64,000 nucleotides of DNA from Schmidtea nova (Eukaryota), in assembly GCA_044892505.1 (NCBI GenBank), contig CM097882.1:12462001-12526000 (forward strand), read 5' to 3'. The stretch's first letter is position 1. Every line of letters begins with the position of its first letter. Below, one piece after another: positions 39,092 through 64,000 of the stretch. The notes under the pieces are model-generated. The model had not been told where the DNA came from, searched no databases, and saw nothing but the letters and a program-made list of their open reading frames with translations. Position numbers and translations under genes: made by a program.

Positions 39092-40054
39092 TTACAAAAA
39101 TCTGGTTTTCTCTTTACCTTGACATTCAACCTTAACAACTCTGACCTTTCCATCACTACCTGGAATCAGTTCCTTAATTCTTACTAACGGCCATCGACCT
39201 TCTAAAATATTAGGTTCTAAAACCCAAACAACGTCACCTACTTTGACTTCTCTGTTTTCTTTCCACCATTTTTTCTTGTACCCCACATTGGTACGAGTTC
39301 TTTCTTCCACCTTTCCCAAAAATGGTTCACTATCTCCAAAATTCTTTTCCATCTTCTTTGGTAATCTACTCCTTCATTAGGGGTGATATCTTCTGTTCGA
39401 TCCAGTCCAGGCCATTTTGATAAAATAAAGTCATTTTGAGTTAGTGCAATATCTTCTTTGCCGTCACTGCATTGCACTGTCAAAGGGCGATAATTCAATA
39501 AGCCTTCTACTTTTATTAACACTGTATTCAGTTCTTCATCCGAAATGTCAGCCTCTCCAATAATTATTTTCATAGCTCTCTTTGCTGATTTTATTAAAGA
39601 CTCGAATATTCCTCCAAAATGCGATGCCGAAGGTGGATTAAATATCCATCTAATTTGATTAGCCAACAGTACTTTACTCATTTTATAAGAATCTATAACA
39701 AACTCTTGAACTTCTCCAGTTTCCCCAACAAAATTTGTTCCGTTGTCCGATAAGATCATTGACGGCTTTCCTCTTCTTCCTATGAATCTCATTAATGCTC
39801 GTACGAAAGCATCTGTATCTAATGAATATGCCATCTCACAATGAACCGCTCGCGTTTGTAAACAAGTGAATAAACAAAGATATCTTTTCTGCCTCACTTT
39901 ACCCCTTCCCTGAATTGTTTCAAATGGTCCTGCAAAATCTACAGCAACCTTTCCAAAGATTTGCATTGGTTCATCAAATCTGAATGAAGGTAGTGGAGCC
40001 ATTATTTGTTCCATCCCTTTAGCTCTTCTTTTTTTACATTCGTGACAATTATTT
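39092..40054 (-). pseudogene. pol: BEL/Pao integrase and C-terminal DUF5641-like tail
   Basis: VAVDFAGP, ILSDNGTNF, HFGGIFESLIKSAK; WPLVRIKELIPGSDGKVRVVKV in a shifted frame. Confidence 0.92.
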
Positions 40055-42286
40055 TCACACTCTTTGATACTGTCTGGCCCTTAATATCCAATATTCCTTA
40101 TTCATGTCACTCAATATATGGTTCACCCCAGCATAATGATTTCCTCTCCTATGATACTCTTTAATGATTAGTCTGGTGACCCAACTTTTATCACTCAGAA
40201 TAACTGGGTACCTTGCTTTAATTGTTAAAAATTCTGCATTAACTAGACGGCTCTTAGATCGAATAATTCTATCTTTATCTAAAATCGGATTCAGTTTTCT
40301 CAACTTACTTTTTTCCTGAACGGATTTGCTTTCATTCAACCTTTTGACTTCTTCTTTAAAATGCTTCTCTTGATCTGCCTTGATTATTCTTATTTCAATA
40401 TCTTCGATTTCTTCGGATTTCAGTTGACCCTTTCTTCTACCTTCAATTTGACACCTACAATTGTTAATATATCTGACTACCAAAGCATATACACACTTTA
40501 ACCTCACCCAGTCCGAATAAGATTCTGGTTCGAAACAATTCACACACGATTTAAAGTTCCGATTTTTTACTTCTGCTTTATTTGTGTACATGACCACTTT
40601 CTTAATTTCTTTACATATTGTCGGCATGTCGATGAATTCAGTCTTAGGCCATTCGTCTTTTTTTAACTGGAGAAATGTCGGTCCTTTTAACCACTCCTTT
40701 TTAACTTGCAGGTCCCTAGCAGACATTCCTCGTGAAATAAGATCTGCAGGATTTTCCTTTGTAGGCACATGCTTCCACTGGTTTGCTGATGTTTCAGACT
40801 GTATGCTTCCAACTCTATTACTCACAAATTGTTTGAATTTTCGCGCATGCTGTCGTATCAAATATAGCACATCCATGCTATCAGTCCAGAATGTAACTTC
40901 CCTAACATCGTAATTTATCGCTCTCGATATCTTTTTTGCCAATTTTAATCCGACACAAGCTCCTAGCAATTCCATCCTCGGAATACTAACCATTTTAACT
41001 GGAGCGACTTTTGACTTAGCCGCTATAAATCTAGTTTCTATGTTCTCTTTAGTTTGCTCTCTTAAATACGCTACCGCTCCGTAAGCTTTTTCAGAGGCAT
41101 CGGTAAATACATGAATAATCCATACGCTATTCACAGAACAAATTAAACATATAGGTATTTTAAACTCATTTAAATTCACTGCTTCTTCAAACCAACATTT
41201 TGCACTCATCTCTATTTCAATTGGTAATGGATCATCCCAATTGATTCCGGACATCCAAGTTGATTGCATTATCATCTTTCCTCTTACTACAAAGGTACTC
41301 AAAAACCCTAACGGATCGAATATTCTGGCTATCCAACTTAATAAAGTTCTTTTTGTTAATTTATTTGATTGAAATGGTTTCACCGAAAACTCAAAATAGT
41401 CTGGTCCTGATAACCATTTTAATCCTAACGTTTTCACTGTCATCCTTCCTTCCTCTTCAATACTCAATTTTGAAGCTCGATCTTTCAATGGAATGCTTTC
41501 CAACAATTTTTCAGAATTAGTTATCCACTTTTTTGCTTTCATTCCGGCCGTTTTCCAAATTATTTCTAAATCATTTTTTAACTCAAATGCCTCTACCTCT
41601 GATTCCACGGAATCTAAACTATCGTCCATGTAAGTGGATTTAATAACTGTTTCAGCAGCTCTTGGAAATTTATTCTCTAAATTTCTTGCATTCTCTTGAG
41701 TCACATACTGTGCTAAGTACGGAGAGGCATTTATTCCAAACACTAATCTATTAAATTCAAAAACTTTAATTTTCGCTTCATCTTTCCATAAAAATCTCAA
41801 ATATTTCCTATCTTCCTTAGCCACTGCTATTTGCAAAAACATTTCGGCAATATCGCATACGATTGCAATTCTATGTTTCCTAAACCGTAGCAAAACATCA
41901 AACAAGTCGTTTTGTAATTTTGGCCCTGTTTCTATTATATCATTCAAACAAGTTCCCCAATTTTTGGCAGCTGCGTCAAACACAATTTTTATTTTTGTCG
42001 ATTCTCTATCTCTTTTTATAACTGAGAAGTGTGGTAACAACCATTTATTTTCGGATTCCTCTGCCTTAGTAATTTCCCTTATATAATCTTTTCTTTCATG
42101 TTCTGCTATTACTTTTGAATACTCCTTTTTTAATATTGCATCTTTACTAAATCGTTCTTGTAAACTTTTCAATCTTTTTTCTGCCATGTTTCTATTTAAA
42201 ATCAATTCTGGTATTTCTTTTTTCCAAGGCAAACTAACTTCATATCTATTATCTTTATAATTTAATTGATTTTTCGTCTTATCCAT
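40055..42286 (-). pseudogene. pol: BEL/Pao reverse transcriptase and Pao RNase H
   Basis: KIVFDAAAK, DIAEMFLQI, RLVFGINASPY, YMDD, FTDASEKAYGAVAY, SIPRMELLGA, FWTDS, ENPADLISRG. Confidence 0.96.
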
Positions 42287-42509
42287 AATTAATTTATCTT
42301 TTGTTGAAAGTGCGATTGGGGTTTCTTAAACTTCCTCAAGCTCCCAGAATTTCAGAATCTGATAATTTATATTTCCTTCCTTAATAAAGTAAGCACGCAC
42401 AAAATTTGTCTGGTGATTTAATGGCATCCCAATTCCTGGTCCACCTACACAAGTCTACCCTAATGGCGTGCGTCTTGCAATAGGTTCATTTTCATTTCCA
42501 GTAATTTCT

Positions 42510-42962
42510 TCAATAGTTTTGGAGGTCTAAATAATCTACTCCAATCAAGACGTCAACTGTCTGCTTTCCATATAAGGACGGGAACGGAATTCCCTTTAAA
42601 TGAGGCCACGAGTGAGCTACTTTTGTCCAATCAATTACTTTCATATTCCCTGTAATTGATCTAAGAGCCAATGCTTTAAATATTTTAACTATTTTCCCTC
42701 CAGTATCCTTCAGGATCATTTCAACACTTCGATCTGGTATTCCCTCAGTTCTTCCACCAATAACCTTTATCGTTGTATTTATATCGCCTCCATCGAGTTT
42801 CAGTTCTGATGCAACTCTTTCGCTTACAAAGCTTGCCGTGCTAGCATCGTCTAACAGTGCGTTCAAAAATAATTGTTTGCCATTACTCTCTAAGATAATA
42901 GGAACAGTTCTCAAACTGAACAACTTTGTTGAATTTTTGACTTGTTTTTTCCCGATTTCCAT
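42510..42962 (-). pseudogene. BEL/Pao aspartic protease region
   Basis: LRTVPIIL...NALLDDASTASFV...DVLIGVD. Confidence 0.85.
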
Positions 42963-43010
42963 TAATGTTACTTGATTTTCTGGAGCCTTTAGAGTTGAAA
43001 AGTTATGTAA

Positions 43011-43919
43011 TCAATAATAATGCTTTTTTGTGCATCCGTCTACTTTACACATCATTTCCTTTTTACAATCCTTGACAATATGGTTGTTCTTGAGACAATT
43101 AAAACATAACTTTAATTCTTTGGCCTTGTTCAATCTTTGTTCCTGAGTCATTTCTTTGAACTTCTTGCACTGATTAATATAATGCTCTTCTGTACATATC
43201 AAACAAATCAATTTATCTTTCTTCAACTTCTTAAAAGCTGGGCATTGACTTTTAAAATGATTGCCTCCACAATTGAAACATCCAGTTTTATTAAATGACC
43301 CTTCATTGTCTTCACTAATCTGCACGTGAGACCTGAACTTTTGGTTTTGAGATCCAGTGTTAAAATTCCTTCGGTCTTCAAAAGTTCTCCTTAATGATTC
43401 AGTACCTCTTTTTATCTCAAAGATCTGTTTAGTTCTTTGCAATTTCTTTTGCAACCATTCCTGAAGACCTTTCACTCCTATTTTCTCTGGGTCTTCTATG
43501 TTCGAAGATACGATCATCCACTCGTCCAACATGGCTTCAGTTAATTGCTGGATTAACTTCTCATATATGAAACTTCTTCCAAGTTCGCTTTGTCTGCCCA
43601 TATCTTCCAAACTCACAATCAGTGTTTCCGTCAATTGTACCAACAATTCCATGTCTTTTACCTGACCTTCTCTTAATGGTCTAAATCTTTCTAATTCCTG
43701 TAAAAGACTAATATAAGCACGGTCGTTCCCTCCATAATTAATCTCCAGTTGTTCAAGCGCTGAATCATAAGCTTTAGCTGTGTGACCTAAATTTTCAATT
43801 AGTTTTAATGCTTCCCCTGCTAAATATTGACGTAGATGTTGAAGCTTTTCTTCCTTGGATCCAATTGCTTTATTGATACTTACTTCAAAGGCAGCTCTCC
43901 AAGTTCTATATTCTTTCAA
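43011..43919 (-). pseudogene. gag: BEL/Pao Gag (DUF1759-like region plus Cys/His knuckles)
   Basis: EYRTWRAAF...EKLQHLRQYLAGEALKLI...LEINYG; CFNCGGNHFKSQC, CLICTEEHYINQC, CFNCLKNNH, CKVDGCTKKH. Confidence 0.9.
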
Positions 43920-49974: not shown

Positions 49975-50894
49975 AATTGAAAACGGGAAACGAATTGGAA
50001 ACAAATTGAAAACGAATTGAAAACGAATTGAAAACGAATTGAAAACGAATTGAAAACGAATTGAAAACGAATTGAAAACGAATTGAAAACGAATTGAAAA
50101 CGAATTGAAAACGAATTGAAAACGAATTGAAAACGAATTGGAAACAAATTGAAAACGAATTGAAAACGAATTGAAAACGAATTGAAAACGAATTGAAAAC
50201 GAATTGAAAACGAATTGAAAACGAATTGAAAACGAATTGAAAACGAATTGAAAACGAATTGAAAACGAATTGAAAACGAATTGAAAACGAATTGAAAACG
50301 AATTGAAAACGAATTGAAAACGAATTGAAAACGAATTGAAAACGAATTGAAAACGAATTGAAAACGAATTGGAAACGAATTGAAAACAAATTGAAAACAA
50401 ATTGAAAACGAATTGAAAACGAATTGAAAACGAATTGAAAACGAATTGAAAACGAATTGAAAACGAATTGAAAACGAATTGAAAACGAATTGAAAACGAA
50501 TTGAAAACGAATTGAAAACGAATTGAAAACGAATTGAAAACGAATTGAAAACGAATTGAAAACGAATTGAAAACGAATTGAAAACGAATTGAAAACGAAT
50601 TGAAAACGAATTGGAAACGAATTGAAAACAAATTGAAAACAAATTGAAAACGAATTGAAAACGAATTGAAAACGAATTGAAAACGAATTGAAAACGAATT
50701 GAAAACGAATTGAAAACGAATTGAAAACGAATTGAAAACGAATTGAAAACGAATTGAAAACGAATTGAAAACGAATTGAAAACGAATTGAAGACGAATTG
50801 AAAACGAATTGAAAACGAATTGAAAACGAATTGAAAACGAATTGAAAACGAATTGAAAACGAATTGAAAACGAATTGAAAATGAATTGAAAACG
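49975..50894. repeat. 11-bp satellite (AATTGAAAACG), ~84 copies
   Basis: Directly visible; rare variants (GGAAAC, AAAACAAA) recur at two places. Confidence 0.97.
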
Positions 50895-51145
50895 AAACTC
50901 TATAAAGTAACTTCTGTAAAATTGTATATTTGACAATATCTGGTTATAGTTAATAATTAATTTATCACATTGTTTATTATTTTATTTTGTCACTTATAAT
51001 CTACCAATACACAGCATACACCCCGAGTGTCCCCACAACAATCGGGCTGACTCTCTCGGGTCCTACAACTCTTCTTCTCATTCGTAAACGTTCACATACA
51101 CAAACAACTAAACTCATTTTGAACAGCGCATAGACCATTAATAAC

Positions 51146-51345: not shown

Positions 51346-52476
51346 ATGGCATCGAACCAAGCAAACCCAAACATTTCACAAACACCCATGGATAACGAAA
51401 ACACACAACCCCAACACGAAAACAACAACTACTATTACAACCCCGAAAACACACACACCATAAACTCTGTAATCAACCCGAAACCCAACTTACCAAACTA
51501 CTTCACCGATGAAAATGGCACTCCACAAAAATGGCTGGAATTTGCTAAATTAACATTAACATTGTCAGGAATAAAATCCACAAAAACCCTATGCTCCAAC
51601 ATTATAGCCGCACTCCCTAGCAACAAACTAAATGAAATAGCGGATCAGATCGAAGAAATTTCGAAGGATGACGACCCCTTCAACAAATTATGCAACATCC
51701 TGACAAACAAAAATAAAATAAACAGACGACAAATGCTAGAATCTTGCCTCAACAACACCCAACTAGGGGACAATAAACCCACTGATTTCCTCAGGCAATT
51801 AAAACAAAAACTAGAATATTTGCAACCAAATATAACAAATTCGGGTTCAAATGAACTAGTGAAAGAATTTTTCATGCGAGCAATGCCACCAGAAATCAGG
51901 AGGATTTTGGCAGCCAGCAACAACGCTGATGTGGAAACGCTTGCCGACATAGCGGATAAGATCAACGAGGAAATCTATCCGACTATATGCAGCACCCAAA
52001 ACAACAACAAAAACAAACCGCACTACAATAACCCCGCTTACAACAAAAACAACGAAACTAACGACAACATGAACAAATTATTAAACACCCTAATCGGTAA
52101 ATTCGACGAAATCATAGTCGAAAACAGACAAATTAAAACAGAATTAGCCGAAATAAAAGAACGTTGCAATAAACAGACCTTCAACTCAACACAATCATAC
52201 GGCAATTACAACAGATATAACTACAACAGAGACCTGCCATCAGACGGTCAAAACAGACAAAACTACAGCCGCAGCCAATCACCGAACAACAATTACAGAA
52301 ACCGGTCAAACTCCCCTAATCGAGGCAACAATTACCGAAACAGAAGCCCAGAAAGAGACCCAAGAAACAATTACCTAAACAAAAACCTTTGCTATTTCCA
52401 CAACAAATTTGGTGAAAAAGCATTTAAATGCACACAACCCTGCGAATTCAATAAAACAGAGCAGGGAAACCAATAA
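51346..52476 (+). CDS. gag: Gag with CHCC zinc finger
   Basis: LGDNKPTDFLRQL, FFMRAMPPEIRRILA, CYFHNKFGEKAFKCTQPC (C-x2-H-x9-C-x3-C, typical of the CsRn1 clade). Confidence 0.92.
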   Translation: MASNQANPNISQTPMDNENTQPQHENNNYYYNPENTHTINSVINPKPNLPNYFTDENGTPQKWLEFAKLTLTLSGIKSTKTLCSNIIAALPSNKLNEIADQIEEISKDDDPFNKLCNILTNKNKINRRQMLESCLNNTQLGDNKPTDFLRQLKQKLEYLQPNITNSGSNELVKEFFMRAMPPEIRRILAASNNADVETLADIADKINEEIYPTICSTQNNNKNKPHYNNPAYNKNNETNDNMNKLLNTLIGKFDEIIVENRQIKTELAEIKERCNKQTFNSTQSYGNYNRYNYNRDLPSDGQNRQNYSRSQSPNNNYRNRSNSPNRGNNYRNRSPERDPRNNYLNKNLCYFHNKFGEKAFKCTQPCEFNKTEQGNQ

Positions 52477-52530
52477 GGTCACCAATGATAGCACCCACAT
52501 CAGGTGACAAAAATAACACATTTTGGGTGC
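52464..52530 (+). promoter_or_regulatory. -1 ribosomal frameshift signal: GGGAAAC heptamer plus H-type pseudoknot
   Basis: G_GGA_AAC in the gag frame, with the -1 frame open into pol. Stem 1 GTCACC(52478-83)/GGTGAC(52503-08); stem 2 GCACCCA(52491-97)/TGGGTGC(52524-30). Confidence 0.8.
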
Positions 52531-55500
52531 ACAGCAATAACATAGATTTTTTAATAGACACCGGCTCGGTGATCTCACTACTGCCCCATTCTATGTATAA
52601 AAGTGCCAACAAAACAGAAAAACCACTAACAGCAGCTAACGGCACAAACATAAAAACCTTCGGGCAACAACAAATAAATTTTAACATAAACCAAAAGAAT
52701 TACAACTGGACATTCACAATAGCTGAGGTCCAACAAGCGATAATAGGAGCAGATTTCCTAACAAATTACAACCTCCTAGTGGATTGTAAAAACAAACAAA
52801 TAATAGAAAATAACACTAATACTACAACACCACAGCACAACACAAACAATGGAAGAAAGCCAAAAATAGACATCGGTGTGATCCAAACGGATACACCTAA
52901 CAATAGACAAAAACAAAAACTGAATCACGACCCAGAAATAAATAAACTACTGGGAAAATTCGAAAAACTCACCGAACCAGTAACTTTCGACAAAAACGCG
53001 GATCACTCTACCGAACATACAATCATAACAAACGGAAACCCGGTGCATGCAAAGGTGAGACAACTAGATCCACAAAAAACAAAAATTACGAACGAAATTT
53101 TCAAGGAGTTACTAGAAAACAAAATAGTAACTCACTCGAACTCTGATTGGTCCTCAGCACTCATGCTCAAACAAAAGGCAAACGGGGAATGGAGAGCTTG
53201 TGGAGACTACCGAATGCTCAACAAAATCACGGAACCAGACAACTACCCTCTGCCTATCATCAGAGACATAATAAACAGATTAAAAGGAGCCAAACTCTTC
53301 TCGAAAATTGATTTACAGAAGGCTTACCATCAAATACCCATCAGGAACGAGGATATAAAAAAAACAGCAATCGTAACACCAATCGGCATGTTCGAGTACA
53401 ACAGAATGCCATTTGGTTTGCGAAACGCAGCTGCAACATTCCAACGTTTTATGGACAAGACGCTGAAAAACAACCAGAACACAATAGCTTATTTGGACGA
53501 CATCCTCATAGCAAGCCCAAACAAAACTGCTCACTTAAAAGACATCGAAAAGGTGTTTGAAACGCTGAACTCCGCAAATCTCAAAATAAACATACAAAAA
53601 TGCGAATTTTTGAAAAAAGAAATAAATTTTCTGGGACATACACTGGACGAAAAAGGCACGAAGCCAATAGACAAGAAAATAAGCACGATACAAGAGTTCA
53701 AATTACCGAACACAAATAGAGAGCTAAGACGATTCTTAGGGATGGTAAACTTTTACCATGCGTACATCCCTAACTGTAGTGAATTGTTAGCTCCATTAAA
53801 CGACCTGATCAAGACAAGAAGAAACATTAAAATAAACTGGACCGAACAAACTACCAAACAGTTCGAAAAAGCAAAAACAAGCTTATCCCGAGCAACATTA
53901 CTCGGATATCCAAATCCAGAACTTGACTACAACTTAGCAACAGACTGCTCTGGATATGCAATGGGCGCAACGTTATACCAAGAGAATGAATACGGCAAAC
54001 AGCCAATCGGGTTTTTCTCAAAAAAACTAAAGATACATCAAACACGATACTCAACTTTTGATCGAGAACTACTCGCGATACATGAAGCCATCAAACACTT
54101 CCAACACTTACTGGAAGCAAGAAATTTCAAAATATATACGGACCACAAACCGTTAACAAACGCGATACAAATGAAAAACCCATCGCCACGACAAATAAGA
54201 CAATTAAATTACATATCACAATTTAATTGCACAATCAACTATGTCGCTGGCGCCGCAAACATAGCAGCAGACACTCTGTCAAGAATAGAAACAGACATAA
54301 ACGCACTAGAATTTGGCGAACTATTCGAAATCGAAAAAATTAAAAACAAACAACCAGAAACTTTAAAAGAACTTCCGCTAAAACACAGCCTGAAATTAGA
54401 AAAAATCAATGAAGTTTGGTACGACGTCAGCAACGAAAACGCACCAAGAATACTCTTACCAAAAGAGTTTAGGAAATCGTGTATTTCGAAAATTCATGAC
54501 ATCAGCCATCCAGGTAACAAAGCCACGTTCGAAATAATTCACAACAGATACATATGGCCAAATATGAGAAAGGAAATCAAAAGTTTTCCTAAAAACATGC
54601 AAAGATTGCCAAATCAACAAAATATCAAAGAAACCAACAACACAAAAAGTAAACTTTCCAAGCAGTCAACCTTTCGAGATGATTCACATCGACATAGTAG
54701 GACCGTTACCACCAAACAACGGGTACAACTACCTACTCACAATCATCGACAGGAAGACTAACTGGTTCGAAATCATCCCGCTAAAGGAAACATCAGCCCA
54801 GAACATATGCAACAAGCTCGAACTAAATTGGATAGCTCGCTACGGTCAACCAAAAGTATTGATAACAGACCAAGGGAGACAGTTCGAATCAGAATTGTTC
54901 AGTACTCTGTGCAACAAATACAACATCAAAAGAAACCGCACAACAGCTTACAACCCTCAAGCAAATGGAAAAATCGAGAGATTGCACAGAACACTAAAGG
55001 AAAGTATCCGAACCAAAGCAGACGACAGAAATTGGCTAAGTCAACTCCCGACAATCTTACTGGGACTAAGAAACACGCCAAACTCAACTGACAACGAAAG
55101 CCCAGCATACAAAGTATTCGGCAGAGAAGCAAATCTCCCAACAATCAAAAACAATACAACCAAAAACGCGGAAACCAACACAAACAACGAAAAAACTGGA
55201 AAAAAATTAAAAGGAATCCTTAAAAAAAGAGCTAACTCTGAAATGGATGGAAAAGTAGTGCTGACAACAGACTACGTATTAGTAAAAAAGCCCTTCACCA
55301 AAGGTTTCGAACCAAAATACGAAGGCCCTTTCAGATTGCTCGAAATTAATAAAAATGTCGCAACAATAATAAAAGATAACACCAAAATAAGAATCAATCT
55401 GAGAAGAATTAAGCCATACCACAACAACCAAAACACCCCAAACAACCCAACAAAAGAGAAAGCCCCGGCAGAAATAAAAACTCAAACAAAACACAAACAC

Positions 55501-55596
55501 ATCACATTCAACTCCAAAAACTCGATAAAACTGTTCGACAAGGACACCATAATCACACCCCTTTACAAAAAACGCTATAGCGATTGCCTCAAATAA
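52485..55596 (+). CDS. pol: Pol (PR-RT-RH-IN) with one +1 nt frameshift near 54585
   Basis: FLIDTGS, YLDD, LATDCSG, YSTFDRELLA, IHIDIVGP, ITDQGRQF, NGKIERLH, YEGPF. Removing one T from agttttccta restores FLKTCKDC. Confidence 0.95.
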
Positions 55597-55728
55597 AAAT
55601 ACACAAACATACACGAACAAAACACAAGCACAACACAGCGAAATGTACAGTTTTTATTTTTCGTGTAAGTAGTACCATATGGGCTATCTACACCACTAGT
55701 ACCCCCCCCTACCCCCCCCCCCCCCCGA

Positions 55729-55760
<32 letters not shown>

Positions 55761-55789
55761 GAAATTTTTTGAAATTTTTGAATTTTAAG

Positions 55790-56275
55790 GTCAATTTTTT
55801 ACGCCATTTTGAATGTTAAGGTCAAATTTTTACGCCATTTTGAATTTCAAGGTCAAATTTTTACGCCATTTTGAATTTTAAGGACAAAACTTTACGCCAT
55901 TTTGAATTTTAAAGTTAATTTTGTACGCCATTTTGAATTTTAAAGTTAATTTTGTACGCCATTTTGAATTTTAAAGTTAATTTTGTACGCCATTTTGAAT
56001 TTTAAGGTTAAATTTCTACGCCATTTTGAATTTCAAGGTCAAGTGGTGTTAAAAATCAAAATATTGTCGGCCATTTTGAATCGGCCATTTTGTTTTTCAA
56101 GTGGTGTTAAAAATCAAAATATTGTCGGCCATTTTGAATCAGCCATTTTGTTTTTCAAGTGGTGTTAAAAATCAAAATATTGTCGGCCATTTTGAATCGG
56201 CCATTTTGTTTTCAAGTGGTGTTAAAAATCAAAATATTTTCAATGTCAAAGTGGTGTTAAAAAACCAAAATATTT
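55790..56275. repeat. Polinton subterminal tandem repeats (~30-bp TTTTACGCCATTTTGAATTTTAAGGTCAAA units, then ~59-bp AAGTGGTGTTAAAAATC... units)
   Basis: Directly visible, after C-run and T-run tracts. Confidence 0.9.
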
Positions 56276-56586
56276 AGCGAATTTTTTCTATTACATTATT
56301 ATCTAGATACTCGCATGATTTGTGGTAAGTATTTCGAGAACTTCATTTTTCAATGTTAATAAAAATTTAGCACAATAAAAAATTATTTACCTTACAATTT
56401 TAATAGTAGATTTATTAATTCTTAAAACAATTACTTCACAGTACAATAAAATTATCACAGGTCGCTATATAAGAACCACAAGTCACTATATTTACCACTG
56501 TTAACTATAAAAGAAATACACAGCTCACTATTTAAAAGACAACAAATGAAATATACTAAACATTTATTAAAAATATATTAAAAATT

Positions 56587-57111
56587 TTAAGCAAGTCTAG
56601 CGCTATCGATTCTCCAAATGGGTGACATAACATCCTTAGCATCTATTTTATATCCTTGAATTGTAATAGAAATAAACCAATTTTCATGATCTTTATATTC
56701 TATTGGTTGAAAGTCATCATGATATCGGCTGTTACGATTGTTGAAGAATACATTTTCATTACATGTCAAATTTTTATTGATTTTCATCAGAACTTTATTA
56801 ACAGCAACAACATCTTGTTTATATATTTTCCCCATAAAATTTGAATATTGTGACTTGACTAAATTAACTGGATGAATGAATTTGAATTCAATTTCCTTTT
56901 CCAAGAAAAACATTTGATGTTCATGAAACATTTGAACGGGTTTGACATTTGGTTTAATTTTCTTTGAATTTTCATTCGACTCCTCAAATATTTTCTTGAT
57001 TGGGCTTGATTTCTGGAAACTGAAAACAGATTGCATTTTATGATGATATATAAATTTATCCTTGTATTTATACTCGTTATTTTTTGTGTGCATCCAATGA
57101 AATTCGTTCAT
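56587..57111 (-). CDS. Polinton ORF of unknown function (weakly suggestive of a ssDNA-binding OB-fold)
   Basis: 174-aa ATG ORF; C-terminal ISITIQGYKI..VMSPIWRI only loosely resembles viral SSB C-termini. Confidence 0.45.
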   Translation of the reverse strand: MNEFHWMHTKNNEYKYKDKFIYHHKMQSVFSFQKSSPIKKIFEESNENSKKIKPNVKPVQMFHEHQMFFLEKEIEFKFIHPVNLVKSQYSNFMGKIYKQDVVAVNKVLMKINKNLTCNENVFFNNRNSRYHDDFQPIEYKDHENWFISITIQGYKIDAKDVMSPIWRIDSARLA

Positions 57112-57488: not shown

Positions 57489-57826
57489 TTATAATTTTCT
57501 AAGTTCTTTTCGTAGTAGCCACTTGTGATATTTCTGTGTCCTATAGAGACAACTATCACATCTATATGCACAGACAATGTTTGCGCTGCAGCTCGGTAGA
57601 TCATCATCTAAGTTGTGTAGATGTTCTGCCAGGACTTCATTGAGATCGATGCCGGTAATAGCTTGAATCTTATATGGCAGGAGCTCCGGAGCACAATATA
57701 CAAGTTCTCGCATCAGTTTAGGGTATAGATCCTCCATCTTTGAAATGAGAACACCCATCAGTTTATCTTAAACGAATGAGAATGTTAAAAATAACTATAA
57801 AATAATCGATTCTTACCATTAGACAT
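57489..57826 (-). CDS. Small Cys-containing Polinton gene with a 50-nt intron (57767-57816)
   Basis: ATG TCT AAT G|gtaaga...tttaag|AT AAA CTG ATG GGT splices in frame; C-x6-C-x3-C-x2-C cluster. Confidence 0.5.
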
Positions 57827-57932: not shown

Positions 57933-58403
57933 TTATACAATGAGTAATAAAAAATTCAAAATTTCCACGTCATCAATCACTGATTTGATGTCGTTAATAA
58001 TTTCATCAATCAAATCCTGATAGCTTAATGTTTTTATACCAAGTATAACTACTTTACCACTGTTGAATATATTAACACATAAAGGGTTATACTTAGTATA
58101 TCTCAATGCCGGAAATATTTCTGGTTCAAATAGACAATCAATGTTTCTTGATAATTCGTGTAGATTGACACAATTTCCAATATCTGTAGTAACTGTAATT
58201 GATTGTATTTGCAAATCATTTATTTCGTAAAATAAATCTTCAGGTTTAAGAGACTGTTTACATCCCATTATTCTACATTTCCCTGACTTGAAAAATATAA
58301 TTGGATACTTTCCACTCCTATCCACAATTTGTTGTGGTTTACCATTTGGAAATTTCATATGGGAAACACAACATCTGCCTTTGTAATTTATGTTGCTTAA
58401 CAT
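57933..58403 (-). CDS. TATA-binding-protein-like protein encoded by the Polinton
   Basis: Two TBP-type repeats: YPIIFFKSGKCRIMGCK and FEPEIFPALRYTKYNPLCVNIFNSGKVVILGIK (cf. TBP YEPELFPGLIY...LIFVSGKVVLTGAK). Confidence 0.85.
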   Translation of the reverse strand: MLSNINYKGRCCVSHMKFPNGKPQQIVDRSGKYPIIFFKSGKCRIMGCKQSLKPEDLFYEINDLQIQSITVTTDIGNCVNLHELSRNIDCLFEPEIFPALRYTKYNPLCVNIFNSGKVVILGIKTLSYQDLIDEIINDIKSVIDDVEILNFLLLIV

Positions 58404-58492
58404 TATTTAACTGAGTATTTTTCAAATAATTTTGATAAAAGTAAAATAATGAATTTAAACAAATATAAACAATAACAATAAACAATTAATAT

Positions 58493-59122
58493 TTGAAAAT
58501 GGAATTAAGAAATGATGCAGTTTATCAAATTGTAGGTCCAAGTGGAAGTGGAAAAACATTATTTGTTTGTAAATTATTACAATCAAAATTATTCAAATCA
58601 AAGTTTAACAAAATTTATTGGCATAGGGGAGCTGATGATGAACATGGAATGACTCAAGATCAATTCTGCAAGATTAAAATGACAATAATAAAGGGATTTG
58701 ATAAAAACTGGTCGTCTAGATTACGAAGTGGTGATGTGATTATTATCGATGATTTGTATCAAGAAGCAAATAAAGAGAAGGATTTTAATAATTTATTTAC
58801 AAAAATCGCTAGACACAAGGGTGTTACAGTTATTTTTATTACTCAGAATTTATTTCATCAGGGTGGCAGTCATCGGACTCGAAATTTAAATGTTCAATAT
58901 CTAGTTATTTTTAAAAATCCTAGAGATGCCACAGTTATTGATTTTCTTGCAAGACAAGCTTACCCTAATAATCGGAATTTTTTGATCAATGCATTTCAAG
59001 ATGCAACTAAAGTCCCACATGGTTATATTTTTCTTGACTTTACTCAACAATGTAGTGATGAATTACGTGTTAGAACCGATATTTTTAACAAAGAAGGAGC
59101 CATGGTTTATAAACAAAGTTAA
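58493..59122 (+). CDS. A32/FtsK-like DNA-packaging ATPase
   Basis: Walker A GPSGSGKT, Walker B IIIDD, IARH, ITQN. Confidence 0.95.
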   Translation: MKMELRNDAVYQIVGPSGSGKTLFVCKLLQSKLFKSKFNKIYWHRGADDEHGMTQDQFCKIKMTIIKGFDKNWSSRLRSGDVIIIDDLYQEANKEKDFNNLFTKIARHKGVTVIFITQNLFHQGGSHRTRNLNVQYLVIFKNPRDATVIDFLARQAYPNNRNFLINAFQDATKVPHGYIFLDFTQQCSDELRVRTDIFNKEGAMVYKQS

Positions 59123-59131
59123 AAATCATGT

Positions 59132-59689
59132 TTGAAATTAATCATGATACTTAAAGCACGTGCCAAACAACCAAAGTTATCTAAACTTAGAAAAGTTATT
59201 AAAAAGAATCGTGAAACAATAATTCCGTCTAAAACTAGTTTCACACCCCCTAAAACATTAATCACCGAAAATTTTCCAAGAATGAATCTTATTTCACATA
59301 ATTCAAAACCAAAAACGTCAAAGGCTCCAAAGGAATCTATAAATAAAAAATCTAAAAATCATCGCAGTTTTTCGTTTTTTAATGCATTACTCAAGGCTCC
59401 AAGCATTAGAAGAATGAGTATTTTACAATCATTTCCCAATTACGTAATTGATGATTTACTTGATGTTATAGTTAAAGTGGTAAAAGGTAAAATCAATATT
59501 AGTAAATCAAATAAAACTGTTTTGAACAAACATAAGAAACCATTATTATCGCTCGTAAATACTAAAAATAAAAAACAAATGCGAAAAATAATATATAAAC
59601 AACATGGAGGTTTTATTGCGGCATTGTTACCATTAGCACTATCTTTATTAGGCGGTGTAGGATTACTAGGAAAACCCTCAACATCATAA
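59132..59689 (+). CDS. Basic Polinton protein with C-terminal QHGG|FIAALLPLAL segment
   Basis: Lys-rich ORF between ATPase and integrase; xGG site followed by an amphipathic/hydrophobic tail. Confidence 0.7.
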   Translation: MKLIMILKARAKQPKLSKLRKVIKKNRETIIPSKTSFTPPKTLITENFPRMNLISHNSKPKTSKAPKESINKKSKNHRSFSFFNALLKAPSIRRMSILQSFPNYVIDDLLDVIVKVVKGKINISKSNKTVLNKHKKPLLSLVNTKNKKQMRKIIYKQHGGFIAALLPLALSLLGGVGLLGKPSTS

Positions 59690-59756
59690 ACAATGGGTCA
59701 ATTACCGATTGGTCATATACCTAATCTTAAATTAAATTTTAATTCTTCTTGTTGCA

Positions 59757-60811
59757 ATGGAGAAGATATGGACAAACCCAAAAGATCCCGCCGGTTTCGG
59801 TGGAGTCGAAAAGTTAAAGAAAAAAGTCCCAAACTCGACAAAAGAGACTCAAAAATGGTTATCGGGTCAACTGGCATACAGTCTAAACAAACCAGCATTG
59901 AAAAGATTTCCAACAAGAGCATATAAAACATATGGTATTAACGACTTGTGGCAAATGGATTTGATGGAAATGATTCCCTATTCAAATATTAACAAGGGAT
60001 ATAAATATATTTTAACATGTATCGATGTCTTCAATAGATTTGCCCGTGCTATTCCTACCAAAACTAAATCAGCAAATGAAATGGCTATTGCAATGAAAAC
60101 TATGTTTAAATCCGGTCGTCCAAAAAACTTACAAACTGATTTGGGTAAGAATATATACTTATTCTATACATTTTTAATTATAATTTAGGTAAAGAATTTT
60201 ACAATAGTAAAGTTAAAGAAGTTTTGGCCGGGATTAATCATTACTCTGTGTTTTCTCAATTCAAAGCAGCCCATGTTGAACGATTTAATCGTACATTAAG
60301 AGATCGTTTGAAAAGGTATTTTGTACATCAAGGTAATAAAACATGGATTAATGTATTGCCAAAAATAATACATAGTTATAATCATTCGTCACATAAAGGT
60401 ATAAATGGATTGAGACCTGTTGATGTTTCAACGAAAAATACTGGATCTCACAAATTAACAACTAGTATAAATAAACCGAAATATAAAATTGGTGATCATG
60501 TTCGAATTAGCAAGATTAGCGCTTCGCCATTCATCAAAAATTTTGATAGTAATTGGAGTGATGAGGTATTTCAGATCACAAAAATTAATATTAGCCAAGA
60601 CCCTGTCATGTATGTTATTTCTGACTCTGACAATAATGTAGTTAGGGGGAAATTTTACGAGCAAGAATTACAAGTTATTCCTCCGCCTACTGTATTTAGA
60701 ATTCAAAAAATATTAAAAACTAAAATGGTGGGTAAGGATAAACAATACTACGTAAAGTGGCATGGATATCAAAACCCTTCATGGATATCATCAAAAGACC
60801 TAGTAAAGTGA
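59757..60811 (+). CDS. Polinton retroviral-like integrase with C-terminal chromodomain; 44-nt intron (60145-60188)
   Basis: WQMDL, LQTDLG|KEF across TTGG|gtaaga...tttag|GT, VERFNRTL; chromodomain QYYVKWHGYQNPSWI. Confidence 0.92.
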
Positions 60812-61827
60812 ATTTTTATACTATATTACCGAGTAATAGCTGTCCATTAATACATCCAGATAATGAAGCCAGTAAATTCATGGTCAATCTTCAAAATCCG
60901 ATTTATTTAGATGGTAATTGGGAAGTTGCATTGCAAGATTTCACGTTTGTGTACAATACATTTCCATTTTATAGTCAATGTAAGATTGATTACAAGAGAA
61001 TTGAAACTATAACATGTAGTGGTCTTTTCATTATCAACAACTTTGATAGATTCTATAAAATTCCTAATCAGAATCTGGCTGCTCATTGTAGTATGTTTTA
61101 CAATAATGGATGTTTAAATATTAATTGCGACTTTACTCCATATACAATTACATTTGAAAATATTGAAGAAGCAAAACGAATGGGAAGTAATCAACTCAAA
61201 ATTGTAAGTAAACTGAAAGAATATCAATTAAAGTTCATATTATTTGAACCGAATAGTTATATGAAAGAAGATATTAAGATAACAATATCTTATGATGCAG
61301 AAATTGAAGAAACATTTACATTTGCAAATGATTTGTATATAGTGCAATTGGAAGATTTATCTAAATATTTATCATTCAACTGCTCCCATATCTTTAAAAC
61401 TCTAGAGATTAACAAATGGTTTCAATTCAGTCTCAACGATAATATTAGCGAAGTTACATTCGATAAAAACTTGGTCAATAATTTAGGATTAAATAAACAA
61501 ACTTATAGAGATCGAAACCTTATTGATGGGACTGTGAAACCAAAAATACTTGTTCATCATCAACAAATGTTCATTTACAGTAACATTATTGAACCAATAA
61601 TTGTCGGTGATTCTCTGGTTCCTCTACTGAAATCTGTATGGATCGACAAATATGAACAGGATGAAGTTGTACAAATAGTAATGGATAATCCAATGTATTT
61701 ACCTATTTCTACTTCATGTATAAACAATATAGAAATAAATATCCGTGACGATAGTGGTAAATTAATAAATTTTCCAAAAGATTCAAAAACACATTTGACA
61801 TTACATTTTCGTAAATTAAATGATTAA
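60757..61827 (+). CDS. Polinton minor capsid (penton-like) protein
   Basis: FYTILPSNS..N....F.VNL..PIYLDGNWEVAL...FIYSNIIEP.IVGD..VPLL...Y.P.....I..IEINIRD..G..I.F...LHFR. True start uncertain. Confidence 0.85.
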   Translation: MAWISKPFMDIIKRPSKVNFYTILPSNSCPLIHPDNEASKFMVNLQNPIYLDGNWEVALQDFTFVYNTFPFYSQCKIDYKRIETITCSGLFIINNFDRFYKIPNQNLAAHCSMFYNNGCLNINCDFTPYTITFENIEEAKRMGSNQLKIVSKLKEYQLKFILFEPNSYMKEDIKITISYDAEIEETFTFANDLYIVQLEDLSKYLSFNCSHIFKTLEINKWFQFSLNDNISEVTFDKNLVNNLGLNKQTYRDRNLIDGTVKPKILVHHQQMFIYSNIIEPIIVGDSLVPLLKSVWIDKYEQDEVVQIVMDNPMYLPISTSCINNIEINIRDDSGKLINFPKDSKTHLTLHFRKLND

Positions 61828-62206
61828 TCCAGATATAATTTCATTGTATAGTAATAGCCAAACTGGTGGTGAATTACCTTATTTTGCTGGTAAACAGTAT
61901 GGATCAGGTTGGTTAAAAACTATAGGGCGATTTGCACTCCCAATTCTTAAGAGAATCGGTAGTTTTGGTTTAAAAACTGCCAAAGATGTCATCATGAATG
62001 ATCAGAAAATATTACCATCATTGAAAACAAATGCTTTGTCTGCCATTGGTAAAGTCTTGCCTACTGTGACTAGTATGATTCCTAATGTTGCAAGTATGTT
62101 TAATAAAGATGAACCTGAATCTGAACAAGTGGAGCCTAGACGTAAAAAGCATCGAAAGTATATAAACAATCGAATGAAAGGACATGGAACTATATTTGCA
62201 AAATGA
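61820..62206 (+). CDS. Small conserved Polinton protein (core/cement-like)
   Basis: QTGGELPYFAGKQYGSGW...RFALPILK pattern; overlaps neighbours by ATGA-type junctions. Confidence 0.7.
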   Translation: MINPDIISLYSNSQTGGELPYFAGKQYGSGWLKTIGRFALPILKRIGSFGLKTAKDVIMNDQKILPSLKTNALSAIGKVLPTVTSMIPNVASMFNKDEPESEQVEPRRKKHRKYINNRMKGHGTIFAK

Positions 62207-63423
62207 TTTGTGGTAAATCTGAATTATGTCTTTTTGATCGACCATCACCTCAAGCAGTTATTGAATATGGAGCATTTGAAGAAGTATTTCCCATGAATTC
62301 TATTACAGACGGTAGAAATGATGTGGAATTTTATATTAACGGATCTCAATCTGAATATTTGGATTTGAATGATACTTTACTAACAGTTCAAATAAAAGTT
62401 GTAAATGCCGATAAAAAAGATTTGTCTGCAACTGATGATGTTATACCAAACAATTTCATGTTTCATACTCTATTCAAAGATGCAATTCTTGGGTTTAATA
62501 ATATCAAGATTGAAGGTGGAAACAATACTTATGCACACAAGGCAATAATCGAAACTATTTTAAATTATAATGGTGATACTAAAGAAACTTGTCTAACTCC
62601 AATGGGATATGGAGATTCTGACGAGAGAAAAGCGTGGATCAAAGGCTCAAAATTATTCACAATGTGTTCTTCTCTACAACTGGATTTCATGGATTAGCCG
62701 AAATATTTACTTCCTTGTGTCAATGTTCATATCAGACTGAAGCGATCCGATTCTGCATTATCATTATATTCTAAAAGTGGAGCTCCGAAATGTCAATTAG
62801 TTGATGCAAAATTAATGATTCGCCGTGTTCGTGTTGAACCATCTGTATTAGCTGGACATCAAGTTGGACTTAATTCAAAACATGCAATTTATCCAATGAA
62901 AACCAAAGAAATCGTGCAGTTTGCCATTGGTAAAGGTGCATCATCTTTCTATAAAGAACAAATATTCGGCGATCGAAGAATGCCTAATTTTATTCTGGTC
63001 GCATTTCAAAGTGAAACTCAATACAATGGATCATATACTGCATCAAGTTCGAAATTTAAACATTTCAATGTAACTTCTCTATCTCTATCGAAAAACACTG
63101 ATTATCGAGAAACATATACTCAAGATTTCGAAAATGATAATTATTGTACTACATATATGCAGTCGATGGTCAGAAATATGGGATATTTAGATAAGAATTT
63201 GAAATGTGGTATAACACTAGCCGATTTTAAAAACAAATACCCTTTCTTTACATTTGTTTTGGCTCCGGATTTCGATTTAAATCAAAGTCAATTACCTCAA
63301 AATGGAAATTTGAGATTGGATATAAAGTTTTCTAAAGCTATTGAAGAACCAGTACATGTAATAATATATGGAGTATTTGAAAATGAAATCCAAATTACTG
63401 CCAATCGAACAGTTTTGGTTTAA
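62203..63423 (+). pseudogene. Polinton major capsid protein with one in-frame TAG (62695-62697)
   Basis: KSELCLF, YLDLNDT, LDFMD*PKYLLP.V...RLKRS, FFTFVLAPD, LRLDIKF. The two ORFs are in the same frame. Confidence 0.9.
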
Positions 63424-63432
63424 ATTATTAAA

Positions 63433-63844
63433 ATGTATAAGTTTAAGTTAACAATTTGTTATGGAGTAAGTTTTATTATTTATCAAATAAATCTATTTAT
63501 CTAGTTCTATTCAGGTTAATCGAATTGGAAAACAATTATTGGGAAATGAATTTATTGGCGTCTATCCACTAGATAAAATCCCTTATTTAGATATCAATCA
63601 AGCCATGGTCGTCAATACTCAATCATCTACTTTAGGTGGTGAACATTGGATTGCTGTATATGTGAAACCAATCAAAGTATATGCATTTGATCCATTCGGA
63701 TGTTACTATCCAAGTTTATTAGTTAGTAAACTTCAAACTTTAGGTAAACCTATTGTATATAATCGAATTCGGTATCAACATCCATTAACAATTACTTGTG
63801 GTCAACATTGCCTTGCATGGCTTAATTCTATGTTCAAAGTATAA
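63433..63844 (+). CDS. Adenain-like cysteine protease, probable 49-nt intron (63466-63514)
   Basis: FIGVYP.D, VVNT...GEHWIAV, FDPFG, YQ.....TCGQHC (H-D-Q-C). GGA|gtaagt...ttcag|GTT is in phase 0. Confidence 0.88.
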
Positions 63845-64000
63845 ACAATGTAGTTTAATAAATGTTTTTAGAAAAAAGATGACTTGTTATTTTATTGATA
63901 TTTATGGTTATAATGATAATGCAGGTGGGTTAATTATTAAGGAACTATGTATTATGAATGTAAATAATATTTTTCGACCAAAGTATTGGATATATAATGA

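Follow-up and report, generated by a model that had tools for sequence, protein, structure and literature searches.

Our analysis of a 64,000-nucleotide stretch of the Schmidtea nova genome (assembly GCA_044892505.1, contig CM097882.1, positions 12,462,001 to 12,526,000 of the forward strand; hereafter the window) indicates that a Maverick (Polinton) element carries a conserved gene for a minimal TATA-binding protein (mini-TBP) whose DNA-contact face differs from that of cellular TBPs. Moreover, a candidate promoter box, (T)ATAAACA, stands at a narrow distance before most of the capsid and packaging genes of the element. We propose that the mini-TBP, with its rewired DNA face, probably reads this box and recruits host TFIIB and RNA polymerase II, switching on a late programme.

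Results

The element and its genes

Polintons, or Mavericks, are recognized by terminal inverted repeats, AG...CT ends and a 6-bp target duplication, and all three were found in the element, a second copy of which has a 6-bp target duplication of its own. The element is about 15.7 kb long and continues for about 7.35 kb beyond the window, its right end lying past the PolB gene. The Polinton hallmark genes that it contains are PolB, the integrase (rve), the packaging ATPase and the adenovirus-type protease. On the minus strand the order is orf174 (ssDNA-binding-like), orf90 and TBP; on the plus strand it is ATPase, orf181, Met-Gly ORF, integrase, putative minor capsid, orf128, major capsid, protease, orf139 and PolB. 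The features in the window are as follows.

55662-55667: 6-bp target duplication, directly before the left repeat
55668..56556, plus strand: left terminal inverted repeat, beginning AGTAGT
56587..57111, minus strand: orf174, predicted T7 gp2.5-like OB-fold ssDNA-binding protein (middling Z of 7.5-7.8; 98-103 residues at 2.6-3.0 Å)
57489..57758, minus strand: orf90, small Cys-containing ORF adjoining TBP in this genome's subfamilies
57933..58403, minus strand: mini-TBP gene, 156 aa, two-lobed TBP saddle (Pfam, AlphaFold2, Foldseek, VIA-align)
58404..58498, no strand: divergent spacer between TBP and ATPase, 95 bp, 12.6% GC
58499..59122, plus strand: A32-like packaging ATPase, 207 aa (Pfam Pox_A32, 1.4e-6)
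59144..59689, plus strand: orf181, basic putative core protein (a relative weakly matches Adeno_PX, E=0.011, below the cut-off)
59693-59926: small Met-Gly ORF, overlapping the integrase start from upstream
59757..60811, plus strand: retroviral-type integrase with chromodomain, here in two frames (rve 1.2e-8; Chromo 1.9e-4)
60781..61827, plus strand: 348-aa ORF, putative minor capsid protein (by position and size)
61820..62206, plus strand: orf128, putative core protein, holding the box of the major capsid gene
62203..63423, plus strand: major capsid gene, double jelly-roll-like; a stop at 62695-62697 interrupts the frame here
63491..63844, plus strand: adenovirus-type cysteine protease, main reading frame (Peptidase_C5, 1.3e-5)
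63879 onward, plus strand: orf139, continuing beyond the window end

In other copies the major capsid frame is 406 aa long. A relative gives a 0.98 atlas match to DJR-like/F54H12.2-like clusters; the match to Pfam PF21738 is weak (one of eight members, E=0.041), and the PDB sequence search returned no match. The 348-aa ORF has no family match; some elements carry this putative minor capsid gene as a tandem duplicate (L049:5616-7684; G000:C1:74219441-74221476). Past the window lies a PolB ORF of 1350 aa, whose relatives at about 60% identity match PF03175 (protein-primed PolB); a Pfam scan of the near-identical PolB of the second copy gave no PF03175 match. In every subfamily of this genome that was examined the integrase is split over two frames, whereas metagenomic relatives have it as a single open frame; at the frame junction (window 60145-60188) lies a short GT-AG segment that, from its sequence, is likely to be a short intron. 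The protease and orf90 each have an apparent short first exon. An ATGGG start recurs at the Met-Gly ORF in all 14 loci examined, often behind a box, and the product is possibly a myristoylated virion protein.

Around TBP in metagenomic loci, relatives of orf174 were found by tblastn in 14 of 53; none of orf90 was detectable in the same 53. Two further ORF families beside TBP, of about 190 and 250 aa, resemble OB-fold ssDNA-binding proteins by eye and have no Pfam match (loci L074, L066, L067, L070, L071, L081, L085 and L088).

Elsewhere in the window, a Gypsy-type gag-pol retrotransposon with pol in two frames lies directly left of the Maverick (51346-55596), and fragmented retroelement ORFs, BEL/Pao-like by eye, occupy 39238-43652 on the minus strand. 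There is a tandem array with an 11-bp unit (about 83 copies, 97% identity; 49988-50896), and a 25-kb stretch from about 9000 to 34000 has strong negative AT and GC skew, which suggests a very long minus-strand coding sequence.

The protein and its fold

It had been predicted from the DNA that the element encodes a TBP-fold protein of 156 aa without N-terminal extension and with a shortened first repeat, separated from the ATPase gene by about 90 bp of AT-rich DNA, and each of these statements agrees with what we find. Only a single codon of open frame lies 5' of the ATG, so the N-terminal extension is absent, and the spacer measures 95 bp at 12.6% GC. The protein matches the Pfam TBP family PF00352 in one stretch, residues 64-126, with E=1e-14 and 54.6 bits against a cut-off of 22.9; the best PDB chain by sequence is the TBP of M. 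jannaschii (5.7e-15). An AlphaFold2 model built from an 81-sequence alignment has pLDDT 97.0 and pTM 0.86, and in a Foldseek search of the PDB with this model all 40 rows listed with E<=1e-3 (44 matches counted) are TBP-containing entries. VIA-align superposes it on archaeal, yeast and human TBP cores with Z of 12.4-12.6 over 142-145 residues at 2.5-2.7 Å (144 residues at 2.7 Å for human TBP). Because so many residues superpose, both lobes of the saddle must be present, and the predicted TBP fold, with Z about 12.5, is there.

The first repeat keeps its strands, and the model has no helix of four or more residues before residue 81; the gaps in the alignment with host TBP cover repeat-1 helix H1 and most of H2. 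Longer relatives of the mini-TBP retain the repeat-1 helical segments in the alignment. One of these longer relatives, P0185, has an additional C-terminal repeat copy and thus three TBP-like repeats.

Family, selection and gene position

The best 150 of 19,347 candidate copies in the genome divide into 53 at 93-100% identity and 97 at 85-86%, and internal stops occur in 6 of these 150 best-scored copies. The mini-TBP is under purifying selection: dN/dS is 0.11-0.31 over 28 pairs from eight genome copies, where dS is near saturation for the distant pairs. The two subfamilies nearest to each other give 0.15; the range for the ATPase is 0.04-0.19. In this genome TBP was found in every capsid-bearing Maverick subfamily examined. 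A PolB search gave seven regions (three with capsid genes and TBP, one with a TBP fragment, three with PolB alone), and an ATPase search found TBP at five of six loci, the sixth being incomplete; among these PolB and ATPase matches, which are TBP-bearing Mavericks or PolB-only stretches, there is no close TBP-less Maverick. The PolB-only derivatives are inverted pairs a few kb apart, with neither capsid genes nor TBP in the stretches fetched (G000:C2:401692001-401712000 and G000:C1:127076001-127106000). Queries with TBP, ATPase and major capsid against IMG/VR returned no match, and the PolB scan returned two near-identical, very distant contigs that have neither TBP nor a box before the ATPase and are too remote to serve as a control.

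Beyond this genome, a single query finds 94 homologues and a profile 622, the latter possibly including cellular TBPs; homologue representatives number 856 at E<=1e-3 and 101 at 1e-10. Among 53 metagenomic TBP loci a core Polinton gene is present in 21 and any gene of the element in 34, the remaining 19 being contigs of at most 3.1 kb. Cluster look-ups of 20 homologues returned neither host nor genomic context. In a quick tree of 71 hand-picked rows, none of which was identified as a giant-virus TBP, 25 short forms cluster (SH-aLRT 99) within a set of 20 longer relatives that share their C-terminal signature; the 45 together are set apart from host and other cellular-type TBPs with SH-aLRT 100. 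The comparison with host TBP that had been called for thus places the mini-TBP group at a distance from it.

The host has a canonical TBP with introns, and the mini-TBP gene is intronless. There are in addition at least three divergent host TBP paralogue loci (L094-L100), two of them nearly intronless over the core; the host TFIIB gene consists of short exons.

The head-to-head arrangement of TBP with the morphogenesis cassette, a central part of the original prediction, survives only within this genome, where subfamilies at 58-65% identity likewise have TBP head-to-head with ATPase. It does not stand as a general trait: the direct arrangement occurs in none of the 11 metagenomic loci with both TBP and ATPase, of which eight have TBP upstream on the same strand, one has it after protease-orf139 and two are divergent with intervening genes. 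In 14 metagenomic loci TBP follows orf139, mostly together with the protease. Head-to-head adjacency is thus lineage-specific.

The DNA-contact face

For the DNA-contact set we took 16 yeast TBP residues given in Table 1 of PMC12529657 and scored them across 81 mini-TBP family sequences. Yeast numbering was carried over by ungapped matches between the host TBP exons and full-length yeast TBP, and the repeat-1 mapping is one of sequence alignment, not of a DNA-bound model. Six of the 16 residues are kept (N69, F116, F190, P191, F207 and V213) and two vary mildly (L114 and T215). The other eight carry near-fixed, family-specific replacements. Five lie in the N-terminal lobe: V71N (mini-TBP N6; 80/81), F99P (P23; 80/81), A101Q (Q25; 63/81), V122R (R44; 80/81) and T124M (M46; 81/81). 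The remaining three are N159S (S68; 80/81), V161T (T70; 75/81) and L205N (N111; 81/81). F99 is one of the four intercalating phenylalanines; F116, F190 and F207 are kept. Moreover, the yeast altered-specificity mutant TBPm3 (PMC1636458) is defined by positions I194, V203 and L205; in the family these are R101, C109 and N111, invariant in 81 of 81.

The acidic EPE loop that contacts TFIIB is retained, with E93 in 77 and E95 in 80 of the 81 sequences; their yeast equivalents are E186/E188 in our numbering, and PMC12529657 writes E184 and E188. Inspection of the DNA- and TFIIB-contact residues, which had been suggested together with the original prediction, thus gives a divided picture of eight of 16 DNA positions replaced and a conserved acidic loop. 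The longer relatives mostly have F99P, V122R, T124M and L205N too, yet keep their repeat-1 helices. Since they share the replacements, the DNA face was likely remodelled before the helices were lost, to judge from the alignment.

A candidate promoter box

Boxes of the form (T)ATAAACA, and one motif before the TBP gene, lie in the element as follows.

58464..58471, plus strand: TATAAACA box, its ATAAAC core starting 34 bp before the ATPase ATG
59108..59115, plus strand: TATAAACA box within the 3' end of the ATPase gene, 35 bp upstream of orf181
59686..59692, plus strand: ATAAACA box, 7 bp before the Met-Gly ORF and 71 bp before the integrase ATG
60738..60744, plus strand: ATAAACA box, 43 bp before the 348-aa ORF
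62161..62168, plus strand: TATAAACA box inside orf128 (codons ATA AAC), 41 bp before the major capsid ATG
63840..63847, plus strand: TATAAACA box, 38 bp before orf139
58409..58414, minus strand: Initiator-like TCAGTT just upstream of the TBP ATG

Among close copies (30 loci in all) the ATPase start string could be located in 28, and the TATAAACA box precedes the ATPase in each of these. We then surveyed the 70 bp upstream of every mapped gene start, with identical windows removed and the expectation obtained by dinucleotide shuffling; the surveyed loci are related, so the counts measure conservation rather than independent events. ATAAAC is found upstream of the ATPase in 17 of 17 cases (2.2 expected), of the major capsid gene in 8/9, orf181 in 8/9, minor capsid in 6/9 and orf139 in 11/14, mostly at -31 to -44 from the gene start. 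It is seldom found upstream of TBP (2/47), and it is upstream of orf128 in 1/7, integrase in 1/10, PolB in 1/3, orf174 in 1/8 and orf90 in 1/7. For the protease it is upstream in three of four cases, but at -70 or -7, and in this element neither orf128 nor the protease has a box at the usual distance. Seven integrase loci (14 examined in all) are not of the window type and have a more distant Met-Gly ORF; in five of these seven a box lies 31-34 bp before that ORF.

The base 5' of ATAAAC is T in 42 of 53 cases and the base 3' of it is A in 48. In 58 windows ATAAACA occurs 45 times forward and never in reverse (1.2 expected), and on the forward strand of the same windows TATAAAC occurs 41 times, TATAAAT three times and TATAAAA not at all; the variant GTAAACA likewise has no forward occurrence. 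Where the box falls inside orf128 it is spelled ATA AAC in all 12 distinct copies, six of them from this genome, and since codon use predicts this spelling with a frequency of only 0.08 each, the sequence points to selection acting on the DNA. In total the element has 28 ATAAAC sites, most of which are not before genes.

The region upstream of TBP has a host-like look, with TATA[AT]A[AT] in 19 of 47 cases. TCAGTT before the TBP ATG is what we take to be an initiator-type motif, and 32 of 47 TBP genes have an Inr-like hexamer no more than 22 nt from the ATG, as against 2 of 17 ATPase genes. A TGTTT[AT]A element is also seen 53-64 bp before TBP (21/47 at any offset); in head-to-head copies it is partly the reverse of the ATPase box.

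Discussion

How would so small a protein switch on the late genes? In the model that we favor, the mini-TBP would be made early, from a host-type promoter with TATA-like and Inr-like sequences. It would then bind the (T)ATAAACA box before most capsid and packaging genes and, once bound, bring in host TFIIB and RNA polymerase II, turning the late genes on. The C at box position 7 would be read by the remodelled N-terminal lobe (V71N, F99P, A101Q, V122R, T124M), because the N-terminal lobe of TBP touches the 3' half of the TATA box (PMC1636458); C7, the diagnostic base, falls together there with five of the eight fixed changes. The C-terminal changes I194R, V203C and L205N may relax or retune recognition of the 5' half, where T predominates at position 1. 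We would expect from this reading that the mini-TBP prefers TATAAACA over TATAAAAG.

In cellular TBP the surfaces of H1 and H2, H2 included, serve host regulators and complexes. Loss of these helices from repeat 1 would remove such surfaces and leave a free factor. The idea of an element-specific promoter factor for late or capsid genes, with which the original prediction ended, thus gains a candidate target box. A bolder version, which we regard as quite possible but slightly on the doubtful side, is that of a one-protein late switch in a widespread Maverick lineage, in which a minimal, orthogonal pair of mini-TBP and TATAAACA would drive the capsid and packaging genes via host TFIIB and Pol II, would escape the regulators of host TBP, and would have arisen independently of the herpesvirus solution.

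Several observations weigh against the late switch. Orf128, the integrase ATG and this element's protease lack the box at the usual distance; most ATAAAC sites of the element are not before genes; one of the four intercalating phenylalanines is lost; and the sampled loci are related, half of the orf128 copies coming from this genome. Two further observations also favor the strongest of the alternatives, in which the host TBP or a paralogue reads TATAAACA, whereas the mini-TBP acts as a decoy or repressor that titrates TFIIB or occupies TATA-like sites, dampening host or early transcription. Wild-type TBP has been crystallized on a C(-25) TATA variant (title of entry 1qn3), so the box is one that host TBP could read, and several TBP paralogues exist in this host. 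A decoy could also explain why the TFIIB-contact acidic loop is retained while F99 and two helices are gone. However, it needs no DNA face fixed at new polar residues throughout the family, and we would not expect a host reader to demand C7, at which the box is held. On balance we consider a decoy unlikely.

Somewhat less probable still is that the mini-TBP is a DNA-bending or DNA-binding helper in replication, packaging or integration, the box being read by something else. A helper would suit the 14 of 53 metagenomic loci that have relatives of the ssDNA-binding gene near TBP, and the element yielded no partner transcription factor. However, the position of the TBP gene varies, as in the 14 loci where it follows orf139, the TFIIB-contact acids are near-invariant, and the first kilobase of the element's left end contains no ATAAAC. 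We think it improbable, more so than the helper, that a host forkhead-type factor reads ATAAACA and TBP has nothing to do with the box: the box fits the forkhead consensus RYAAAYA, but the strict orientation, the narrow spacing and the absence of GTAAACA from the 58 windows argue otherwise. Finally, a recent retrocopy of host TBP carried as a neutral passenger, for which the intronless gene might speak, is rejected as a very remote prospect, given about 25% identity to host TBP across the aligned part, a separate clade, dN/dS well below 1 and a gene that is common to sibling elements and conserved in distant Polintons from metagenomes.

We therefore return to the mini-TBP as a probable late-promoter factor. 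How Maverick capsid genes are activated bears on whether Mavericks still behave as viruses, and a defined protein with a defined 8-bp box makes this activation testable by simple assays. The mini-TBP is also a natural test of TBP minimalism, with two helices and one intercalating phenylalanine dropped and purifying selection persisting, and it alters the very positions that change TBP specificity in yeast. If it proves orthogonal to host TBP, the compact TBP-promoter pair would be of interest to basic and synthetic biology alike.

Comparison with known TBPs and viral mimics

Most of the giant and large DNA viruses that have TBP homologues also encode an RNA polymerase; no RNA polymerase gene was seen in this Maverick. 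Their TBP homologues in BFVD have the same fold (best E 3e-8), and in rows with E<=1e-3 they are 8-21% identical to the mini-TBP and longer. Cellular TBP (PF00352; yeast 1ytb, human 1cdw, M. jannaschii 2z8u), which binds TATA DNA and seeds the preinitiation complex, shares with the mini-TBP the two-lobed saddle, N69, F116, F190, P191, F207 and the EPE loop. Unlike it, the mini-TBP family is only about 145-156 aa long, lacks H1/H2 of repeat 1, has Pro for F99 and eight DNA-contact positions changed, and is encoded by a mobile element.

Yeast TBPm3 and the mini-TBP depart from wild type at the same positions, I194, V203 and L205, with different residues (F/T/V in TBPm3 according to PMC1636458, R/C/N here). 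TBPm3 tolerates G at base 2, whereas the Maverick box keeps A there; since base-2 behaviour differs, the analogy goes no further than showing that specificity is tuned at these positions.

A possible functional parallel is with the herpesvirus mimics, as described in PMC12529657. KSHV ORF24 employs a polar-rich TBP face at late promoters with a TATT late box. Like it, the mini-TBP is a virus-type TBP fold with polar replacements at the equivalents of V122, T124 and L205, and, as with ORF24, BcRF1 and UL87, a variant TATA box precedes structural genes, (T)ATAAACA here and TATT there. However, ORF24 is a 752-aa multidomain protein within a viral complex, and the mimics have a Pol II-binding N-terminal domain and an extra C-terminal domain, neither of which is found in the bare 156-aa core of the mini-TBP. 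In ORF24 all four phenylalanines are present and the acids for TFIIB contact are absent, and the prediction is that it does not bind TFIIB; the mini-TBP, by contrast, has lost F99 and keeps the acids. Late function has been shown for ORF24; for the mini-TBP it is proposed here.

A TBP-like gene is named in the Fig. 5 legend of Starrett et al. (PMC8502044), in MELD viruses with adintovirus-like PolB; in the part available of that paper and of the preprint 10.1101/697771 it is a legend label, without family, residue or promoter analysis, and the first about 4 million characters of one supplement contain no match to TBP or TATA. In its available portion PMC10675990 mentions TBP only in mirusvirus-like elements, and that of PMC13193136 concerns a different TATA variant; a TBP/TATA term search of preprint 10.1101/2024.03.18.585575 gave no matches. 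Within a search that did not extend to subscription papers and preprint supplements, we found no publication describing the mini-TBP family or the box. Thus viral TBP-like proteins in large DNA viruses, the late factors of beta- and gammaherpesviruses and the MELD TBP label are known. What appears to be new is TBP-based viral promoter selection by a Maverick, with a mini-TBP that is real, conserved and under selection, a box to go with it, and a function that we predict from their sequences.
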